A stretch of DNA of 64,000 nt, from positions 64,001-128,000 of the IMG/VR virus record IMGVR_UViG_3300032242_003148. The stretch is one strand, 5' to 3'. The stretch is from a virus. How positions within the stretch are numbered: the stretch's first letter is position 1; every line of letters begins with the position of its first letter. The notes under the pieces are model-generated. The model saw only the letters and a program-made list of their open reading frames with translations, did not search any database and was not told where the DNA came from. Below, one piece after another: positions 1 through 10,900 of the stretch. Position numbers and translations under genes: made by a program.

Positions 1-146
1 GAGTTCTTCTGACACACTGGATCAGCTCTAATGTGCTGCCAGCTTATCGCAATGGGATTTCTCGGATAAAATGTTGCTCCCCTCAGTCCATGGTATTGGA
101 CAAGAAGGGAGCGGGTTCGACATTCAAATTGGTGGAGGCGAGGGGA

Positions 147-799
147 CAGATAATTCAAGAATTTTCATCCTTGTCTGGACTATTCCTTTTTCTTGGAGTA
201 TGGTTGTGCTTTAACCGTGTTCAAGAAAAACCGCATTTATGAAATTGTCTATCCAATACACCGCTGGACTTATTGACGGAGAAGGAACCATTACTCTTAG
301 TTATGATAATAAAAAAGATAAATGGCGAGCTCCTATCGTCTCAGTCAGCAGCACTACCCTTGAAATACTTGATGCCCTTAAAGAATCCTACGGAGGATGT
401 ATTTGTAAGCATAAAGTATATAAGGATCACCATAAGCAGGCATATAGTTGGAGATGTCCAAGAGGTGGCGCAGTTAATCTTTGCGCCAGTCTTAAAGACG
501 TCTTACTTGTACCTGAAAAGGCTTATCGCGCAAAAATGATTTCAGATAAGTATCCTAAATGTACACCTAGAAACGGTAAATACACAAAAGAACTTTCTGA
601 AGCCAAATCTGAGTTTGAATATGATTTTTTCCATCCTAGTAAGCCATAGCACTTTCGTGATTTAGGCTCCTATGAGTCTCTAGCCAGCTTACTCCTTTCG
701 GATTCACCGGACGGTGTTAGCATCAGCATTACCTGGAAGCTTTCGCCGTTTGAGCGGTTTTTTCACTGGATAATTACTTATCCAGGCGACTCTTTATGA
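147..799 (-). mobile_element. Group I self-splicing intron (IA-like) in the tmRNA T-loop
   Basis: P1 CGAU|UC/GAGUCG with U.G at the 5' splice site; terminal G147; P2 hairpin 785-766 with GUAA loop; P3 as a 9-bp inverted repeat (762-754 / 234-226); R element CUAGAGACUCA (~683-673); S element AAGGAAUAGUCC (~188-177); P9 173-156 with GAAA loop. Confidence 0.92.
239..649 (+). CDS. Single-motif LAGLIDADG homing endonuclease, intron-encoded, antisense to the intron
   Basis: N-terminal YTAGLIDGEGTI motif, 136 aa, basic; lies entirely inside the intron. Confidence 0.9.
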   Translation: MKLSIQYTAGLIDGEGTITLSYDNKKDKWRAPIVSVSSTTLEILDALKESYGGCICKHKVYKDHHKQAYSWRCPRGGAVNLCASLKDVLLVPEKAYRAKMISDKYPKCTPRNGKYTKELSEAKSEFEYDFFHPSKP

Positions 800-1024
800 A
801 TCGAACCCCTGTCACTTACTCATTTCAATCAACCGTGTACATGCTTTTCACATTTAATATAAGAACCACAATAATGTGTAAAAGCGCAGTTCAGATTTCC
901 AACTTAACGCAATTGGTGCGTATGCGAGTTATACCCTCACAACATAATCGAGGTACCCTTTTGTAGTACTGGGCATCGGGCGTCCCTGTACCGTTATTGC
1001 TACTAGCGGCTCTTGCCGCTGCGG

Positions 1025-1120
1025 TTAGGCAGCGAGAAGCTCAGCGTCAGCATAGCCATACTTTGCAAGAATGGCATCTGCCTCGGCGAGGCTAGGAGCA
1101 AGCATCTCGTTAGAGTTTGC
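1025..1120 (-). other. tmRNA proteolysis-tag reading frame ANSNEMLAPSLAEADAILAKYGYADAELLAA
   Basis: Resume codon GCA preceded by an A-rich tract; C-terminal LAA and TAA stop, as in ssrA tags. Confidence 0.85.
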
Positions 1121-1239
1121 TTTTATTTTTGTTCTCAGATGATTAAGGAGGCCAACTGAGTTCCTCCGCATGTGGGTGTGATATCTATTTGTAAGCTCGA
1201 GTGCCTGTAACGCCCCCAAATTTTTATAAGTGTATTAAA

Positions 1240-2022
1240 TTATTTAAGCCTAGTAAAGCAAAAGCTGCCTTCTGGAAGTTCTGCTCCGTTAGCTCCTGGG
1301 CTATAATAAACGTGAGGTTTAGAGGGTATTAATACCTTACCAAACTTCTTGGCGATTAACACCACTGTTTCCATAATGCCCAGAGCATATGTATGTACCA
1401 GATTTGAGGTGTTGTTTTTGGTGTTCCGTAGCCACATCTTATCGTCATCAACATAGAGCTGATGTCTATAAGCGGATTTCTCCCCGATCTTTATTGTTTC
1501 CTCTCTGGTATATTTACATCCACGAGCAAGCATGAATGTAAAAATAATATTACCAAGAGGTTTTAACATTTCGGTATCACTCAATAGTTCTTCTATATAG
1601 CCTATAATGCCTCTATTAAATGTACCCATGAAGTCTCCGTAAATGATGTCAAAACCAGCATCTGTGGGATTAAACATCCTAGAGTTAAAATCTCTAACCA
1701 CCACTTCTTCCCATTTGTTGGGTAGTAGTTCTGTTTTTACGTTTTTACCATTAATCGTGGCAGCTACTTCTAGCGCTTTCTTATAAACTACAGGATTTGA
1801 CTCTGTGCCTAGAAAGTTAATCTTATTATTAGGGAAGTTCTGAATCAACTGGCTCTCCCACAGCCACTTCTCTGCAGGTAATGATAAAACATTAACTGGT
1901 TGATTTCTATACTCACGATATGTCATGAGCTTCTTGAGATCCCTATTGATATAAAGATCATTGTCTCTTTTTGCCTTACGGGCAGGTGAAGCCCAATCTA
2001 TTACTTCTACGTTTTTAGCCAT
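1240..2022 (-). CDS. Putative class I SAM-dependent methyltransferase-fold protein
   Basis: Rossmann-like succession VNVLSLPA / NFLGTESN (acidic end of strand 2) / FDIIYGDF / MLKPLGNIIFTF. Confidence 0.55.
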   Translation of the reverse strand: MAKNVEVIDWASPARKAKRDNDLYINRDLKKLMTYREYRNQPVNVLSLPAEKWLWESQLIQNFPNNKINFLGTESNPVVYKKALEVAATINGKNVKTELLPNKWEEVVVRDFNSRMFNPTDAGFDIIYGDFMGTFNRGIIGYIEELLSDTEMLKPLGNIIFTFMLARGCKYTREETIKIGEKSAYRHQLYVDDDKMWLRNTKNNTSNLVHTYALGIMETVVLIAKKFGKVLIPSKPHVYYSPGANGAELPEGSFCFTRLK

Positions 2023-2072
2023 GTTTGTTTTATGGTTATGGTTGGTGTTTTGGTTTAGGGGAGGGGACAGTT

Positions 2073-2790
2073 AAAAATAAGTTTGTGTGATCATCACCAC
2101 TTAGCAGATTAAATACCACCAGCGTGTGGTTAAAAATCAATCTACTAACCGTGTCGCCAGATCTCCTGGGCGCTCTACTCACAAGCTTATTTAAATTCGG
2201 GGCGCGTTCCTGCCAAGACTTCTGCAATTGTCATTAGCAAGGCGGGTGGTTTGTTCATTGTCTTTGCAGAGAACCTATGAGGTTGTCACCAAATATGGGG
2301 TTATACCATATTGACCTATTAGGAGCGTACTTAATTACGATACGTTCCATTTTTGCTGCGCCCAATCCCCCAGCTAGTTTAGCCGGGACGCTCTATGCCT
2401 AGTTGGCTATTTATACTCGCATAGACGAGTTTGAAACACACCCGTGTTGTACCATACACAATCCAAAGCACGCACTAATTGGCTATGTATCGTCGCAGGA
2501 TCTCCCTGCACCCTATTCGGGGAGTGCTTCAAAAATGAGGATCTGTACGCCCGTTTGCTATCTATCTCGGAGCAAGGCAGGGGTCTCGAGATCCCGCTTG
2601 CTTGTATAGACAATATCAACCGTGGACCTTTGGTTAATTAGCGGGCGTACAGATCTTCCCCCCAAAAAGCTAAATGTAACATGCTATCTTCTGTAAGGAA
2701 GATGCACGTTGTTGGGTGTGGGGTTTGTTAACCGATTGATTTACCGCTATACCCTAAATTAATAGAGCCCAGCAAATCGTGGTTACATTT
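2073..2790 (+). ncRNA. Candidate large structured non-coding element (multi-domain)
   Basis: No credible ORF; many nested inverted repeats, e.g. 2540-2553/2642-2655 (14 bp perfect), 2075-2087/2180-2192, 2672-2680/2782-2790. Internal wobbles are mostly G.U on the + strand. Confidence 0.55.
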
Positions 2791-2828
2791 TATTATACCG
2801 CAAAAAATGTGTGTTCTAAATGGGGGGG

Positions 2829-3116
2829 TTAGCACCCATTTAGAAGCTGATTAAGTCTCTTTATTTCTGCCTTGTCGGCTCTACGTATCTCAAACAAATC
2901 ATCAATACTTACGAATGTTCTATCATCATTCTTATTAACTTTCACAATCTTGGGATGGTTCTCTAGCACCTTAATCTTTTCATTAAGTTTCTCTAGTTCT
3001 GCCATTAATTCATTCCTGGTGACCGTTAGCTGTACTGCCATATTGGCGTGAACTTCTAAGTTGTTCTTAAGCTCTGTGTTTTCCCTGATCAACTTGTCTA
3101 CTATTTCGTGGCTCAT
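2829..3116 (-). CDS. Hypothetical coiled-coil protein (95 aa; start reassigned to ATG 3116)
   Basis: Heptad-like L/E/K pattern; the ATG at 3116 avoids overlap with 3139-3402. Confidence 0.6.
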   Translation of the reverse strand: MSHEIVDKLIRENTELKNNLEVHANMAVQLTVTRNELMAELEKLNEKIKVLENHPKIVKVNKNDDRTFVSIDDLFEIRRADKAEIKRLNQLLNGC

Positions 3117-3138
3117 GTATGTTTTGGGTTTGTGTGGT

Positions 3139-3402
3139 TTAGTTGTAGAAAGGGGTGTAGCCCGCTCTAGTGATTCCTTCATCGTGATTAATACTTCCTC
3201 CGTGTGTTCCTGGTAATTCCGCAAAATCGATAGGATTACCTCTCTCATCCGCTCCGAAAATTAACGTTTCCGGTTTATCAAAATCTGGTTTTGAGCAGGT
3301 GACAATTATATAGCTGTGCCCATCTAATGGATGGGAGAGACTGTATAGTCTGCTATCAGCTGCCCAGTCTTCTAACTTTTTTATATATTTGGCTATCTTC
3401 AT
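3139..3402 (-). CDS. Hypothetical protein
   Basis: 87-aa ATG-initiated ORF in operon orientation. Confidence 0.7.
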   Translation of the reverse strand: MKIAKYIKKLEDWAADSRLYSLSHPLDGHSYIIVTCSKPDFDKPETLIFGADERGNPIDFAELPGTHGGSINHDEGITRAGYTPFYN

Positions 3403-4511: not shown

Positions 4512-5669
4512 TTAGTTGTTTGTAGGTAATAGTTGTACAGGAGAGCATAAATCGGATTCCAGAAATGTCAACCCAACAAATATAGTATTGTTGTTTAAAC
4601 CTGCCTGTCGGTTTCCGGATATATCTGTGTAACTGCTCAGGGTGGGAGTTATATTTGTGTCTTGAATAGGCTGCTGCACAGAATTTCCGTCAAAAAGATA
4701 AATATTGCTGCCTGCTGTGAATTTAAAAACACCGTTTTCATCTGGTGGTATTCCATTAATATATGAAATAATATCACCACAGTCATGGTATGCATCAGGT
4801 AAAAATCTAGTTGTACAGTCCATCTGTAAACCTAACCGATAACCTGCAGTCATGTTTATTAAGTTATTATTAAAATTTATAGCGTAGTTATATCCAGGAG
4901 CAAATTCTATATCTCCTGTTATACCTATGCTTGTTGCTGACTGCAATGGAAGAGATGGAACCAATGTATCGGTGTTTTTAGATCTAATAGTTAATGGTGC
5001 TCCACTAGAATTAGCTGGCCACAATCCAGTAAAAGTCCATTGAGCTCCAGGTGAAGGGTTACCAGAGGCTCCTGTTATTCCAGCAACCAAACCTCCGTTA
5101 AAAACAATTTCATAATTTTTGGGATTAGCTTGTATTTGTGGTCCCCATGCGGGATTACCTAATCCAACACTCACTGTGTTTTGACCAACAGTGGCCTGTC
5201 CCTGAAAGTTCATTATGTTTTCTATTTTGAACCCTCCGCTAACATAATTAGGATTACTTGAGATACTAACAACCCCATTCCATGCTCCACCAAACTGATA
5301 AACAACCGCAGGCTCTACAGGAACAGCAACGTTAAAAACAGTATTTCTTGTTACCTTTTTTAAGTCCTCACCTAGAACCAATAAACTTCCTGCGGTGTTT
5401 CTTAAATAAAGTGGAAATTTTATAGCATCCACGCCAGAAACGCCGTGCTCTGCATAGTTATAGTCAAAAAAGTTATCAGTGAAAATGACAGTTATATCTG
5501 TGGAATTAACTACCAATGCTGTTAATTTAGCTGTATTTGGGTTTGTTGAAGTGTTGATATTCAAAGACAAGTCAAGTATAGCTCCATCCGGGATCTGTGA
5601 AACCGTCTTACCCTCAATTAGTGGGTAAGCTCTCAGTGCGTTTTCATTAAGCCATTCTAATACTTCCAT
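4512..5669 (-). CDS. Baseplate/tail-fibre paralog 5
   Basis: N-terminal LEWLNENALRAYPL family motif; C-terminal INGIPPDENG plus Cys. Confidence 0.65.
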   Translation of the reverse strand: MEVLEWLNENALRAYPLIEGKTVSQIPDGAILDLSLNINTSTNPNTAKLTALVVNSTDITVIFTDNFFDYNYAEHGVSGVDAIKFPLYLRNTAGSLLVLGEDLKKVTRNTVFNVAVPVEPAVVYQFGGAWNGVVSISSNPNYVSGGFKIENIMNFQGQATVGQNTVSVGLGNPAWGPQIQANPKNYEIVFNGGLVAGITGASGNPSPGAQWTFTGLWPANSSGAPLTIRSKNTDTLVPSLPLQSATSIGITGDIEFAPGYNYAINFNNNLINMTAGYRLGLQMDCTTRFLPDAYHDCGDIISYINGIPPDENGVFKFTAGSNIYLFDGNSVQQPIQDTNITPTLSSYTDISGNRQAGLNNNTIFVGLTFLESDLCSPVQLLPTNN

Positions 5670-7900: not shown

Positions 7901-10900
7901 TTATACCTTCCTAACCTGTAATTGTACAGTCTTTGTTACCGTGGATGAGCTCCAACAAGGGTCTGAAATTGGGGTAAATGAAACAAGCAGTGGATAGCTT
8001 GCTATAGTTCCTACAGCCTGCCCTGTCATAGGGTATACTGTTCCTACTGCTGGGGAATATGTAAATTCCCCCTGTACCTCTGAGTTATTGTCTGTAGTTA
8101 GCACAGCTATTGCGTTTAATTGATCACCACTCAATGGGGTTGTGGAGGTTATCTGATCTGGGGTGGGCCACAATATTGTAACCGGACCAGCAGTTACATC
8201 GAATTGGCGATTCACAGTGGTTATTGCTATATTTGCATTGTCAGTAGGTGTAAAGGTTATTGAAATTGAAGAACTACCTGCGGCAAGTCTCGAGTTTGAA
8301 TATAATGAATATGAGAAAGTTCCAGGATACGGTGGAGTAGATCCCTCTGTAGCGGTTAATAATCCCGCGGATAGTGCAGTAGCGCCGCAATATATATTGG
8401 TTGGCGGAGTCCAATTTATTGTTGCTGCTGCTTTGGTTACATTTAATGCCACAGATAATATGGAATCTGCGTAGTCGGCATCAGTTGATGTGAATGTGGC
8501 GGTTAGTAAACTTATTCCTGCATTGAGTCTTGTGCCAGCTGCGGGAGAGTATGATATACTTCCTGCTGCCGGGGTTGTTTGTGTGGCGTTTAACTGAGTC
8601 GAACTGAGCAGGGTACCATAACTGATGCTTGCTGGAGTTGCCCAATTTAATATGGATGGTAATTTTGTTAAATCCAAAGTGATATTAAAATTCTGTGAAG
8701 TACCTGCAGGATTACTAGCAGTAATGGTGATTTGATATGATTGTCCTACATCACCATTAGATGGAGTGCCTATAATATTGCCATAGCAGTCTATGCTCAG
8801 GGATGATGGTAATCCCACAGCTACAAATGCCGTTGGATTATTATAAGTATTAAATTTAATTAATGGCTTGTCTGCTGTGTATGGTCCTGATGAAGTATAA
8901 ACAGATGGTTTGAACTTGTATGTGGTAGGCCCAGAGGTTACTGCAGTTATTGTGGTGGTAGCTTCAATAATCGATGGAACTCCTGTATAATTAATCGTAT
9001 ATTTGGTGTTTGATGACCCCCCAACATAGTTATCAGTAACAACTATATCATAATTTCCTGATCTATTTACATATGTTGGAGAACCATAAATGTTGCACGT
9101 GGCTGTCACATTTGCATTAAACGACACACCAACTGGAAGACTTCCAGAAGTTAAAGTGTAGGCCGTAGAAGAATCTTGACTGGTTATGGCCACACATACG
9201 TTACCTCCCTGTATAACAGGTATATTTTGAGTTGTGTCTTTTACTATGATTTGACAAGCAACTGTGGCCGAGGTTCTTGCATTATTTGCCGTGAGATTGA
9301 CATTATATGTACCTGACCCTATAGAAGCTACCGGACCACCAATCACAGCCCCGGTTGCGCTATCGATTGTTAATGGGGATGGTAAACCTGTAGCGGAGTA
9401 ACTTGTTGGAAATCCAGAGCACGTTAAAGAAAGCAATGGAGAATTATTTGTATATACTCTGTTTTGATAGTCCGGTGGATTGATAGTATAAATATTACTC
9501 GCGGTTGGTGAAGAGATGGTAACCTTGTCAGCACGATAGTCTATTAAAAAACTAAATGGTATAGATATACCGTTTTTGCGGGCATAAATAGTAATTGGAT
9601 ATTTGGCGCTTGTGTCTATTGTACTAGTTCCTGATATGTTGCAACCCGCTAAACTAGATGTATTAAAGGTTAATCCTTGCGGTAGGCTTCCTGAATATGT
9701 GTAACTGTCAGAAGCTCCGAGACCAGTTATCTTATAGCAGTAGTTTGAGTTATTATATACAACGTCAGATACCGGCGAAGCTGAAATATAAATAGTTATA
9801 ACTACATAAGATTTTGCTCCAGCTATGTTTTTCGCTGTGATGGTTGGATAGTAATATCCCTCAGCAACAGAAGTAGATCCTACTATTTGACCAGCGTTAT
9901 TAATGCTAAGTCCTGTGGGTAATCTGTCAGCCGTATAGCTTGTAGGAGAATTATCGGCCAGAACCTGTAACAGTGGTGCGAGTGTAGTATAGTTAGTTGT
10001 ACTATATGTGGGAGATACAATGTAGAATGTTTGCTGACTGACTGGATAAGTTATTTTAGGTGCTGGTATATAATTTATATTAAACTGGCGACTAGATATA
10101 ATTTTTCCTTTTGTTATTTTTAATACTATGTGATATGTAGCAGCGGTGGTTTGTGCTAGCAGACCTGATGGATAATATAAGTGGCAAGAGCTATTCACAC
10201 TAGAGTTTACATATAACCAAGAAGGCAGGGATTCTCCGTATACTGGCTCCACCGCGAATGAAACATTAGGTGTAGTTTTTAGCTCATTTAAATCCGCGAA
10301 CTGGTAACAAAAAGCTGTGCCCTCATAAGCATTTATAGTTTCAGGTGTGGAATTAAGTAAAATATTTAATGTTACTGTTGAGGAGTTGCCTGCCGAGTTG
10401 GTGGCGTATATGCTTACAGGATAGTTTCCTGCAGTGGTTGTGGTTATTTTACCAATAATATTTCCATAGTTATCTATTGATAGTCCTGCAGGTAGTCCTG
10501 TGGCCGAGAAAGACGTAGGCAAATTATCAGCAGCAACAACAAGGAGAGGATGGTTTGTTGTGAAGGTTGAAGATTGCCCGAAAGTATTATTAAAATCTGG
10601 GGGATATATGGTTAAGGTTGAGCCGTCTAATGGATATTTGATATTCGGGATAGATGAGTTTGGAATATCATATTGTATTTGCCTATACCCTCCGGATACT
10701 AAATCTTGTCTAACAATCACAGAAGTTACACCTGAAGTTAACTCATAGTTAGTTCCTGAAAAATTAGCTACAGCTCCATTGCTACTTAAGTTTAATTTAG
10801 GATCAAATATCAGCCAACCCGGTAAAACAGCATTTACCGACATAGATACAACGTCACTTCCTACTATAATAATATAATTAAATGGAACCCCATAAACAGC

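Follow-up and report, generated by a model that had tools for sequence, protein, structure and literature searches.

The largest stretch free of open reading frames (ORFs) in the 64,000-nt window analysed here, bases 64001-128000 of a 165.6-kb IMG/VR record (IMGVR_UViG_3300032242_003148) of a lake phage with a completeness estimate of 85%, lies at window positions 2023-2828, close to a transfer-messenger RNA (tmRNA) gene. This gap contains a series of separately closed RNA folds with a pistol self-cleaving ribozyme among them, all assigned to the minus strand. We consider it probable, at roughly 70%, that the gap is the promoter-proximal part of a minus-strand non-coding RNA operon of the tmRNA/tRNA island, whose transcript would be cut by the ribozyme into an upstream and a downstream block. 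A sequence-only reading of this DNA had singled out the gap as the largest of its kind, which it is (806 nt, with ORFs of at least 80 aa counted over the whole window), and had offered two explanations, one large novel non-coding RNA of the GOLLD or ROOL kind or an array of small RNAs. The array is the option that we retain, because the modules are present or absent independently of one another in relatives, because the ribozyme splits the stretch, and because no match to GOLLD or ROOL was obtained. The features of the gap and its borders are as follows, in the order of the minus strand (z, folding z-score).

Hairpin 2846-2814 with U-run 2808-2802, minus strand: terminator-like hairpin closing the upstream gene, read from the sequence.
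2792-2820, minus strand: promoter-like site with TTTAGA at 2820-2815, a 17-nt spacer and TATAAT at 2797-2792, scoring 10/12.
2729-2785, minus strand: M1, a long hairpin with which the transcript is predicted to begin (z -3.5 on the minus strand versus -1.3 on the plus strand).
2678-2710, minus strand: M2, a simple hairpin followed by the conserved ACAUUUAG (z -6.3).
2540-2655, minus strand: M3, a three-way junction with a 14-bp closing helix, identified by covariation.
2432-2532, minus strand: M4, a three-way junction with a GAGAU-capped P2 hairpin, identified by its match to the M7 model (z -3.7 on the minus strand versus -2.0 on the plus strand).
2362-2430, minus strand: pistol self-cleaving ribozyme (RF02679; 60.5 bits versus a gathering threshold of 34.5; model positions 1-68 of 68).
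2200-2363, minus strand: M6, a multi-hairpin RNA of about 165 nt closed by GGGCGC/GCGCCC, identified by covariation.
2072-2189, minus strand: M7, a three-way junction in which GAGAU caps P2 and the P3 loop holds a conserved UGCUGG; identified by covariation.
2023-2071, minus strand: a U-run and then a CA-rich leader that has no Shine-Dalgarno box and extends to the ATG at 2022; read from the sequence and conserved with the sister lineage L008.
1240-2022, minus strand: ORF of 260 aa with a class I S-adenosylmethionine (SAM)-methyltransferase-like fold, from a structure model and Foldseek.

The pistol ribozyme was the single Rfam match above cut-off in the whole window. This settles in part the suggestion that the element was novel: 2430-2362 belongs to a known family, and the remaining modules stayed unmatched when 2000-2860 was searched with 4227 families at expectation values (E) up to 10, a search that also gave no match to GOLLD, ROOL, hammerhead, hatchet, twister-sister or hepatitis delta virus (HDV)-like RNAs. 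As read from the alignment, P1 of the ribozyme is formed by 2430-2415, and CUAUGC at 2424-2419 is fully complementary to GCAUAG at 2398-2393; we take these two segments to be the pseudoknot positions, at which the pair set differs from the consensus on both sides (uau/aua versus ugg/cca). P3 and P2 are joined by 2 nt, G2367-A2366. Because cleavage of the consensus ribozyme falls within the P3-P2 junction, where the GU is only modestly conserved and the length strictly kept (Harris 2015, PMC4604425), the cut is predicted between G2367 and A2366, five bases ahead of the M6 closing helix. The core bases of pistol are identical in 4 sequences from 3 lineages, and P3 covaries, reading CCCGGCU/AGCUGGG in the window, CCUGGGC/GUCCGGG in L010 and CCUGGAC/GUCCGGG in L012. 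The ribozyme directly abuts M6 in L010 and L012 and in the close relatives L026, L028 and L029. The hairpin proposed earlier at 2370-2377/2399-2406 is not confirmed: it would form only in place of the pistol fold, and in L010 its partner segment is not complementary.

The other modules, M1, M2, M3, M4, M6 and M7, match no Rfam family and no GenBank phage record; blastn of 1900-2950 against 50,697 such records gave no match. As a whole the 806-nt gap folds better than its dinucleotide shuffles (minus strand, z -4.75; plus strand, z -4.44; none of 20 shuffles equalled it), in agreement with the expectation of the sequence-only reading. The long closing helices that it had pointed out are present at 2075-2087/2180-2192 (M7), 2200-2206/2357-2363 (M6) and 2540-2553/2642-2655 (M3; 14 bp and perfect), and a further helix, 2672-2680/2782-2790, is seen in the window's clade only. 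The covariation that it had suggested looking for is found as compensatory changes among relatives in M3, M6 and M7. For M3, 12 of 39 pairs are compensatory and 94.8% of cells are paired (slid controls 0-4 pairs). The corresponding values are 7 of 38 pairs and 93.2% for M6 (slid controls 1-4 pairs), and 15 of 34 pairs and 87% for M7 (slid controls 1-8 pairs); for each of the three modules 0 of 500 shuffles were as good. Between lineages the modules are 61-85% identical in nucleotide sequence versus 53-65% for the adjacent genes, and are thus at least as well conserved as these.

M6 and M7 are present in all four lineages known to us, M6 always directly 3' of a ribozyme and M7 always with a U-run after its closing helix. 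The first two G residues of M6 are common with P2 of pistol. Two invariant loops of M6, CUGCAA and UUGCAG, can pair over 6 bp; they show no variation, which speaks neither for nor against a contact. In M7 the junction strands GUGAGUAGAG and GGUGAUGAUCACAC are invariant. The two arms of M3, which is present in L003, L008 and L012, are a hairpin with an invariant 10-nt loop, AAAGGUCCAC, and a long hairpin that varies. Taken together, the invariant single-stranded blocks, namely the M3 loop, the two M7 junction strands with UGCUGG, and UGACAA, GUGAACAAA and AGGAACGCGCC of M6, suggest a specific tertiary structure or specific partners; a scan of the phage genome for sites complementary to the invariant loops gave only the loops' own antisense. 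In the window, the M3 hairpin that varies (2575-2600, minus strand) includes a palindrome, GGGATCTCGAGACCCC, which through its GAUCUC could base-pair with the GAGAUC loops in M4 and M7. This pairing is not conserved, the sequence of L003 being different there.

M4 is a clade-specific paralogue of M7, since a covariance model built from M7 only (CM R1) matches 2424-2537 on the minus strand (29.6 bits, E 8.3e-5) and matches the copy in L002 with 39.2 bits (E 9e-8). The ATCTC loops noticed earlier at 2157-2169 and 2495-2509 are genuine; on the minus strand their sequence is GAGAU, and each forms the tip of a P2 hairpin, in M7 and in M4 respectively. The closing helix of M4 carries compensatory changes among close relatives, and M4 lacks the 3' junction strand of M7. 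No further copies were found with CM R1 in the window's genome or in G001/L008, G002/L009, G003/L010, G004/L012 and G005/L002, nor any other copy of M3 with its model (CM R2) in the window's genome, G001/L008, G003/L010, G004/L012 and G005/L002; G002/L009 is identical to L008 across the stretch compared. The proposals that M4 is a twister relic and that UAGAGCG of M7 is a pistol fragment were both rejected on alignment reading. We also rejected the small ORFs of the gap (at most 70 aa) as genes, these being disrupted in close relatives by a deletion of M3 and by 1-3-nt indels, with substitutions that track the helices.

Homologues were sought by protein-guided and by pattern-guided searches, the pattern scans for M7, M6 and M3 covering viral contigs, metagenome contigs and prokaryote genomes, and only three further lineages were obtained. 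The window's own clade includes the close relatives L002, L003, L026, L028 and L029, which are 92-95% identical. L008, which is the same as L009 and L027, encodes a neighbouring protein 58% identical to the 260-aa protein of the window; L010, in which the neighbouring protein is 33% identical to the window's, and L012 represent the other lineages. Prokaryote genomes gave one GC-rich match only, which looks like chance, as do the GC-rich matches L011, L013, L014, L018, L022-L025 and L040, which lack the module folds. L017 was left out of the homologue set. The layouts of the loci are as follows (P, promoter-like site).

Window and L003: P-M1-M2-M3-M4-pistol-M6-M7-ORF-tmRNA.
L002 and L028: as in the window, with M3 deleted and its 3' strand remaining.
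L008: P-M1-M3-[twister-like]-M6-M7-ORF-tmRNA.
L012: P-M1-M2-M3-pistol-M6-hairpin-M7-tmRNA.
L010: P-M1-M2-pistol-M6-hairpin-M7-tmRNA, the ORF following 0.9 kb later.

These layouts differ by the gain and loss of whole modules. In the closest relative, L002 (L002:3465-3480), and likewise in L028, a deletion of about 106 nt has removed M3 and left the 3' strand of its 14-bp helix, GGGTGCACAGATCC; M3 can therefore be dispensed with. L008 lacks M2 and M4, and L010 lacks M3 and M4. M1 and M2 are kept as hairpins with largely different stem sequences: in L008, L010 and L012 the -10 box is followed by an M1-like hairpin whose stem has another sequence, and the M2 site holds a hairpin with another stem sequence in L010 and L012. 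By comparison M6-M7 is always present, and always after a ribozyme of self-cleaving type, which is pistol in three lineages and twister-like in the fourth. L010 and L012 have an additional long hairpin between M6 and M7 (L010:3378-3450, L012:2362-2432) that is absent from the window and whose stems differ fully (GGAGGTACCGAGA/TCTCGAGTACCTCC versus GAGATGCCGAAAG/CTTTCGAGCATCTC).

The slot between M3 and M6 in L008 (103 nt, 4557-4659) gave a match to the type-P1 twister RF03160 over model positions 1-68 (29.6 bits; E 3.2e-4 in a 751-nt search); a search of L008 and L009 at the gathering threshold did not report it. The U-A-A cut site, P1, P2 and P4 are present, with insertions at the places of the optional P3 and P5. 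L4 reads UCUCAAGU and L1 reads GAGAG, for CCCAAGC and GAGGG in the RF03160 consensus, and we suppose that the changed loop bases could retain the T1 and T2 contacts. Searching with a pattern for this variant, UAAUGCUAC ... GUCUCAAGUC, gave nine new loci in addition to the two records of the L008 clade. Six of these, on IMG/VR contigs, were aligned (L048, L049, L050, L052, L053 and L054); L051, a repeat of L048, and L047, which is the same as L055 and lacks the 3' motif, were set aside. L016:9623-9733 (minus strand) is the same DNA as L008:4549-4659. Within the six aligned loci UAAUGCUAC, GUCUCAAGUC and GCAGAGRG are invariant, P3 and P5 differ, and P1 covaries (UUUG/CAAA, CUUUA/UAAAG, GAGU/ACUC), as does P3. 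The subtype is marked by UCUCAAGU and GCAGAGRG at the places of the consensus CCCAAGC and GAGGG. Several copies lie inside phage tRNA arrays; M3, M6 and M7 were not found at the other twister-bearing loci. From the alignment we accept the L008-type RNA as a recurrent natural, putatively self-cleaving variant of twister. The cut is predicted 11 nt after M3 for twister, compared with 5 nt before M6 for pistol. Because two unrelated ribozyme classes occupy the same slot in homologous operons, this arrangement argues that the cut itself, just upstream of M6-M7, may be the feature under selection.

Several observations point to the minus strand as the functional one: the pistol ribozyme, the -10 box behind a terminator, the orientation of the tmRNA and tRNAs, the better minus-strand z of M1 and M4, and the invariant G.U pairs within the covarying helices of M3, which on the plus strand would be A.C mismatches. 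The earlier inference of a plus-strand RNA was drawn from a preference for plus-strand wobbles that we do not recover (7 G.U versus 7 A.C among helices predicted on both strands), and it is contradicted by pistol, the -10 box after the terminator hairpin, the flanking genes, the tmRNA and six of the seven tRNAs, all of which are on the minus strand. The terminator-like hairpin overlaps the stop codon of the upstream ORF and also accounts for weak stem matches in the permissive Rfam search; a C-run hairpin and T-run stand likewise ahead of the -10 box in L008, L010 and L012. The TATAAT at 2797-2792, which had been noticed in the sequence as pointing into the region, is conserved in all four lineages, and the promoter-like core GGTATAATA is invariant in 4 of 4, consistent with the site acting as a promoter.

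We propose the following model for the operon. The conserved -10 box at 2797-2792 would start a precursor of which M1 forms the 5'-terminal hairpin. The transcript would carry the independently folding, stem-closed modules M2, M3, M4, M6 and M7, separated by U-rich linkers (AUUUAGCUUUUU, CAUUUUU, AAUUUAAAU and UUAUUUUU). The pistol ribozyme between M4 and M6 would fold and cut during transcription, at G2367/A2366, releasing an upstream block of about 420 nt (M1-M4 with the ribozyme) that ends in a 2',3'-cyclic phosphate and a downstream block that begins with 5'-OH-AUUGG, five bases ahead of M6. The first two G residues of M6 would then quit P2 of pistol and complete the GGGCGC/GCGCCC helix, the overlap being read from the alignments. 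The downstream block would consist of M6-M7 and continue into the methyltransferase-like mRNA and probably the tmRNA, and the U-rich linkers may let host nucleases free single modules. As to the role of M6-M7, our guess is either a stable trans-acting small RNA or a structure that caps and protects the 5' end of the RNA after it.

A number of points weigh against this model. A search for RNA sequencing runs that contain window 1900-2900 gave none. The cut-site dinucleotide is GA where the consensus has GU. The twister-like RNA of L008 scores 29.6 bits against an Rfam cut-off of 67.2 bits. The pistol cut falls at the 3' end of the ribozyme and the twister cut at the 5' end, such that what the two would have in common is the separation of blocks and not a precise RNA end. 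Fold z-scores and wobble counts do not separate the strands for M3, M6 and M7; consensus-fold energies are mixed between the strands, and for M6 the energy is lower on the plus strand. Finally, the comparison comprises four lineages only, with covariation calculated on 4-6 sequences and a shuffle test that is inflated by shared ancestry.

Among the alternatives, the one that survives best, which we consider possible and rather unlikely, is that the stretch is a cis-acting leader: once the ribozyme has removed the 5' part with its triphosphate, M6-M7 would stay attached, capped by a 5'-OH, and stabilise or regulate whichever RNA comes next. In the window and L008 this would be the methyltransferase-like mRNA, and in L010 and L012 the tmRNA precursor. 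Between M7 and the ATG at 2022 neither a terminator hairpin nor a promoter-like site is present, and the next gene, be it the ORF (window, L008) or the tmRNA (L010, L012), always begins no more than about 50 nt after M7. That ribozyme cleavage gives a 5'-OH, as is stated in PMC8782182, is also compatible with such a leader. That the downstream gene varies with the lineage, however, is not what would be expected of a gene-specific regulator; both M6 and M7 have more in the way of invariant loops and junction strands than a stabilising stem-loop would need, and the U-run after the M7 closing helix could in all lineages end or process the RNA there.

It is unlikely, in our estimation, that M6-M7 is a new functional RNA unit, retained by all lineages and freed each time by whichever class of self-cleaving ribozyme is available, and either a new catalytic RNA, with M7 as a self-cleaver or processor completing the excision of M6, or a trans-acting binder of a host factor. 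If this were true, the pistol/twister swap would mark RNA ends made by ribozymes as the selected feature. The more specific proposal, that one or more of the orphan modules, M7/M4 first, are an undescribed self-cleaving ribozyme that excises M6 together with pistol (leaving a 5'-OH and a 2',3'-cyclic phosphate), seems to us quite improbable. M7 is a three-way junction with invariant bases in its junction strands, and it has been duplicated beside pistol as M4. However, no ribozyme family matches M4, M6 or M7 at E up to 10, M4 lacks the 3' junction strand of M7, and no known ribozyme stands in the place of M7 in any lineage. Hammerhead ribozymes are defined by a three-way junction, CUGANGA, GAAA and an A-U pair at 15.1-16.1 before the cut site. 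M7 as a hammerhead was rejected: the hammerhead models gave no match at E up to 10, and threading M7 onto the core, as read from the alignment, failed at C3, A13 and the 15.1-16.1 pair, M7 having GUGAUGA (C3 replaced), GUAGAG for GAAA, and C-G at the place of the 15.1-16.1 pair.

A single large multi-domain RNA of the GOLLD or ROOL kind would account for contiguous structured domains over about 720 nt near tRNA and tmRNA genes and for the overall z of about -4.7, and is nevertheless very improbable given the missing GOLLD/ROOL match, the self-cleaving ribozyme in mid-stretch, domains that are lost or gained singly in close relatives with the rest retained, and the lack of any conserved long-range helix between modules. 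Functional RNAs on the plus strand, antisense to the operon, have in their favour a plus-strand fold better than shuffles (z -4.44) and the lower consensus energy of M6 there, and we consider them the least probable reading of all, given that pistol is strand-specific and on the minus strand, that no conserved plus-strand promoter was found, that M1 and M4 fold clearly better on the minus strand, that the invariant G.U pairs in the covarying M3 helices would be lost, and that the G/U-rich plus strand of M6 gains its pairs mainly via G.U (31 G.U cells).

The genes around the gap fit an operon read on the minus strand. Both bordering ORFs are on this strand (1240-2022 and 2829-3119/3248). The neighbouring tmRNA named in the sequence-only reading is backed by an Rfam match (797-1200, minus strand; 35.1 bits, E 1e-11) that falls short of the gathering threshold (35 versus 47 bits), and ARAGORN does not call it. 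The low score arises because an intron splits the gene, the ends of which we read from the sequence near 1221 and 136 on the minus strand. The interruption, of about 650 nt, lies in the T-loop (window 136-1221, minus strand) and holds on the opposite (plus) strand, at 239-649, a LAGLIDADG-type ORF whose Pfam match (PF00961, E 5e-4) is below cut-off; the uninterrupted tmRNAs of L026, L028 and L029 score 76.7-76.8 bits. ARAGORN reports seven tRNAs, six of them on the minus strand 3-10 kb further downstream; the seventh is a tRNA-Thr on the plus strand at genome positions 139097-139171. A few kb past the tRNA array of L029, a match to the abiF RNA motif (RF03085) lies at 8559-8594 on the plus strand and barely reaches the gathering threshold (37.3 versus 37 bits). 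CA-rich leaders lacking a Shine-Dalgarno box precede the start codons at 2023-2071 and 3120-3150 on the minus strand (for example AAACCAAAACACCAACCATAACCATAAAACAAAC), and may indicate a host group with weak Shine-Dalgarno use.

In the window and in L008 the 260-aa ORF separates M7 from the tmRNA; in L010 it follows the tmRNA at a distance of about 0.9 kb. Its product has no sequence-level match in Pfam, PHROGs, NCBIfam or PDB. The structure model (predicted local distance difference test, pLDDT, 67; predicted template modelling score, pTM, 0.71) has a class I SAM-methyltransferase-like Rossmann fold, and Foldseek matched it to many SAM methyltransferases at E of about 1e-7, the tRNA methyltransferase Trm1 included. 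The segment FDIIYGDFMG is similar to the D-x-D-P-F-G motif of Trm1-type RNA methyltransferases. An RNA substrate is plausible, because every lineage in which the ORF was found has it linked to the tmRNA/RNA operon.

To our knowledge, little has been established about what pistol and twister ribozymes do in nature, and the M6-M7 RNA beside a tmRNA offers a concrete substrate for tests. Two aspects of this locus are new. One is a set of four uncatalogued RNA families supported by covariation (M3, M6, M7/M4), which are candidates for RNA databases and for catalysis and binding screens. The other is a slot within a phage tmRNA operon in which ribozymes are interchangeable. The recurrent twister subtype is far below the Rfam cut-off, judged by the one copy scored, that of L008, which means that ribozyme censuses of phage genomes undercount it.

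The ribozyme of the window resembles described members of the pistol class RF02679 (Weinberg 2015; Harris 2015) in that P1, the pseudoknot, P2, P3 and the 2-nt cleavage junction are all present, and in its phage association, which is typical of the class. It differs in having GA for GU and one extra base after the AUAAAUA linker, in its position within a non-coding RNA operon next to a tmRNA, and in a P2 whose 3' strand overlaps the M6 closing helix by two bases. The RNA in the L008 slot shares with twister RF03160 (reviewed in PMC5408937) the U-A-A cut site, P1, P2, P4 and the optional P3/P5; twister is absent from the window, and the L008 copy is a subtype below the Rfam cut-off. GOLLD and ROOL are, like the stretch described here, phage-borne, ORF-free, highly structured and near tRNA genes, but each has one conserved architecture, whereas this stretch is modular and divisible and matches neither model. 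Species 1 and 2 of phage T4 (rnaC/rnaD) are small stable RNAs in a phage tRNA cluster with no known function. The RNAs of the window are similar to this type as structured non-tRNA RNAs on the phage tRNA strand, clustered and presumably co-transcribed and processed; six of the seven ARAGORN tRNAs, with the tmRNA, are found within 10 kb downstream on the minus strand. Unlike the T4 species, they are without sequence similarity to any GenBank phage record, are located upstream of a tmRNA, include three-way junctions of 100-165 nt, and belong to a precursor with its own ribozyme. Theta ribozymes, which are minimal HDV-like ribozymes, adjoin phage tRNA genes and have been interpreted by their authors as maturing RNA without a protein nuclease (Kienbeck 2024, PMC10879173). 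They have in common with our system a small self-cleaving ribozyme in a phage RNA cluster and a cut site beside another structured RNA; in the window and L008, however, the class is pistol or twister, with no HDV-family match, and the neighbour of the cut is the orphan M6 and not a tRNA. By analogy, the operon proposed here appears closest in mechanism to the theta ribozymes that adjoin phage tRNAs and to the unexplained stable RNAs found in phage tRNA clusters.

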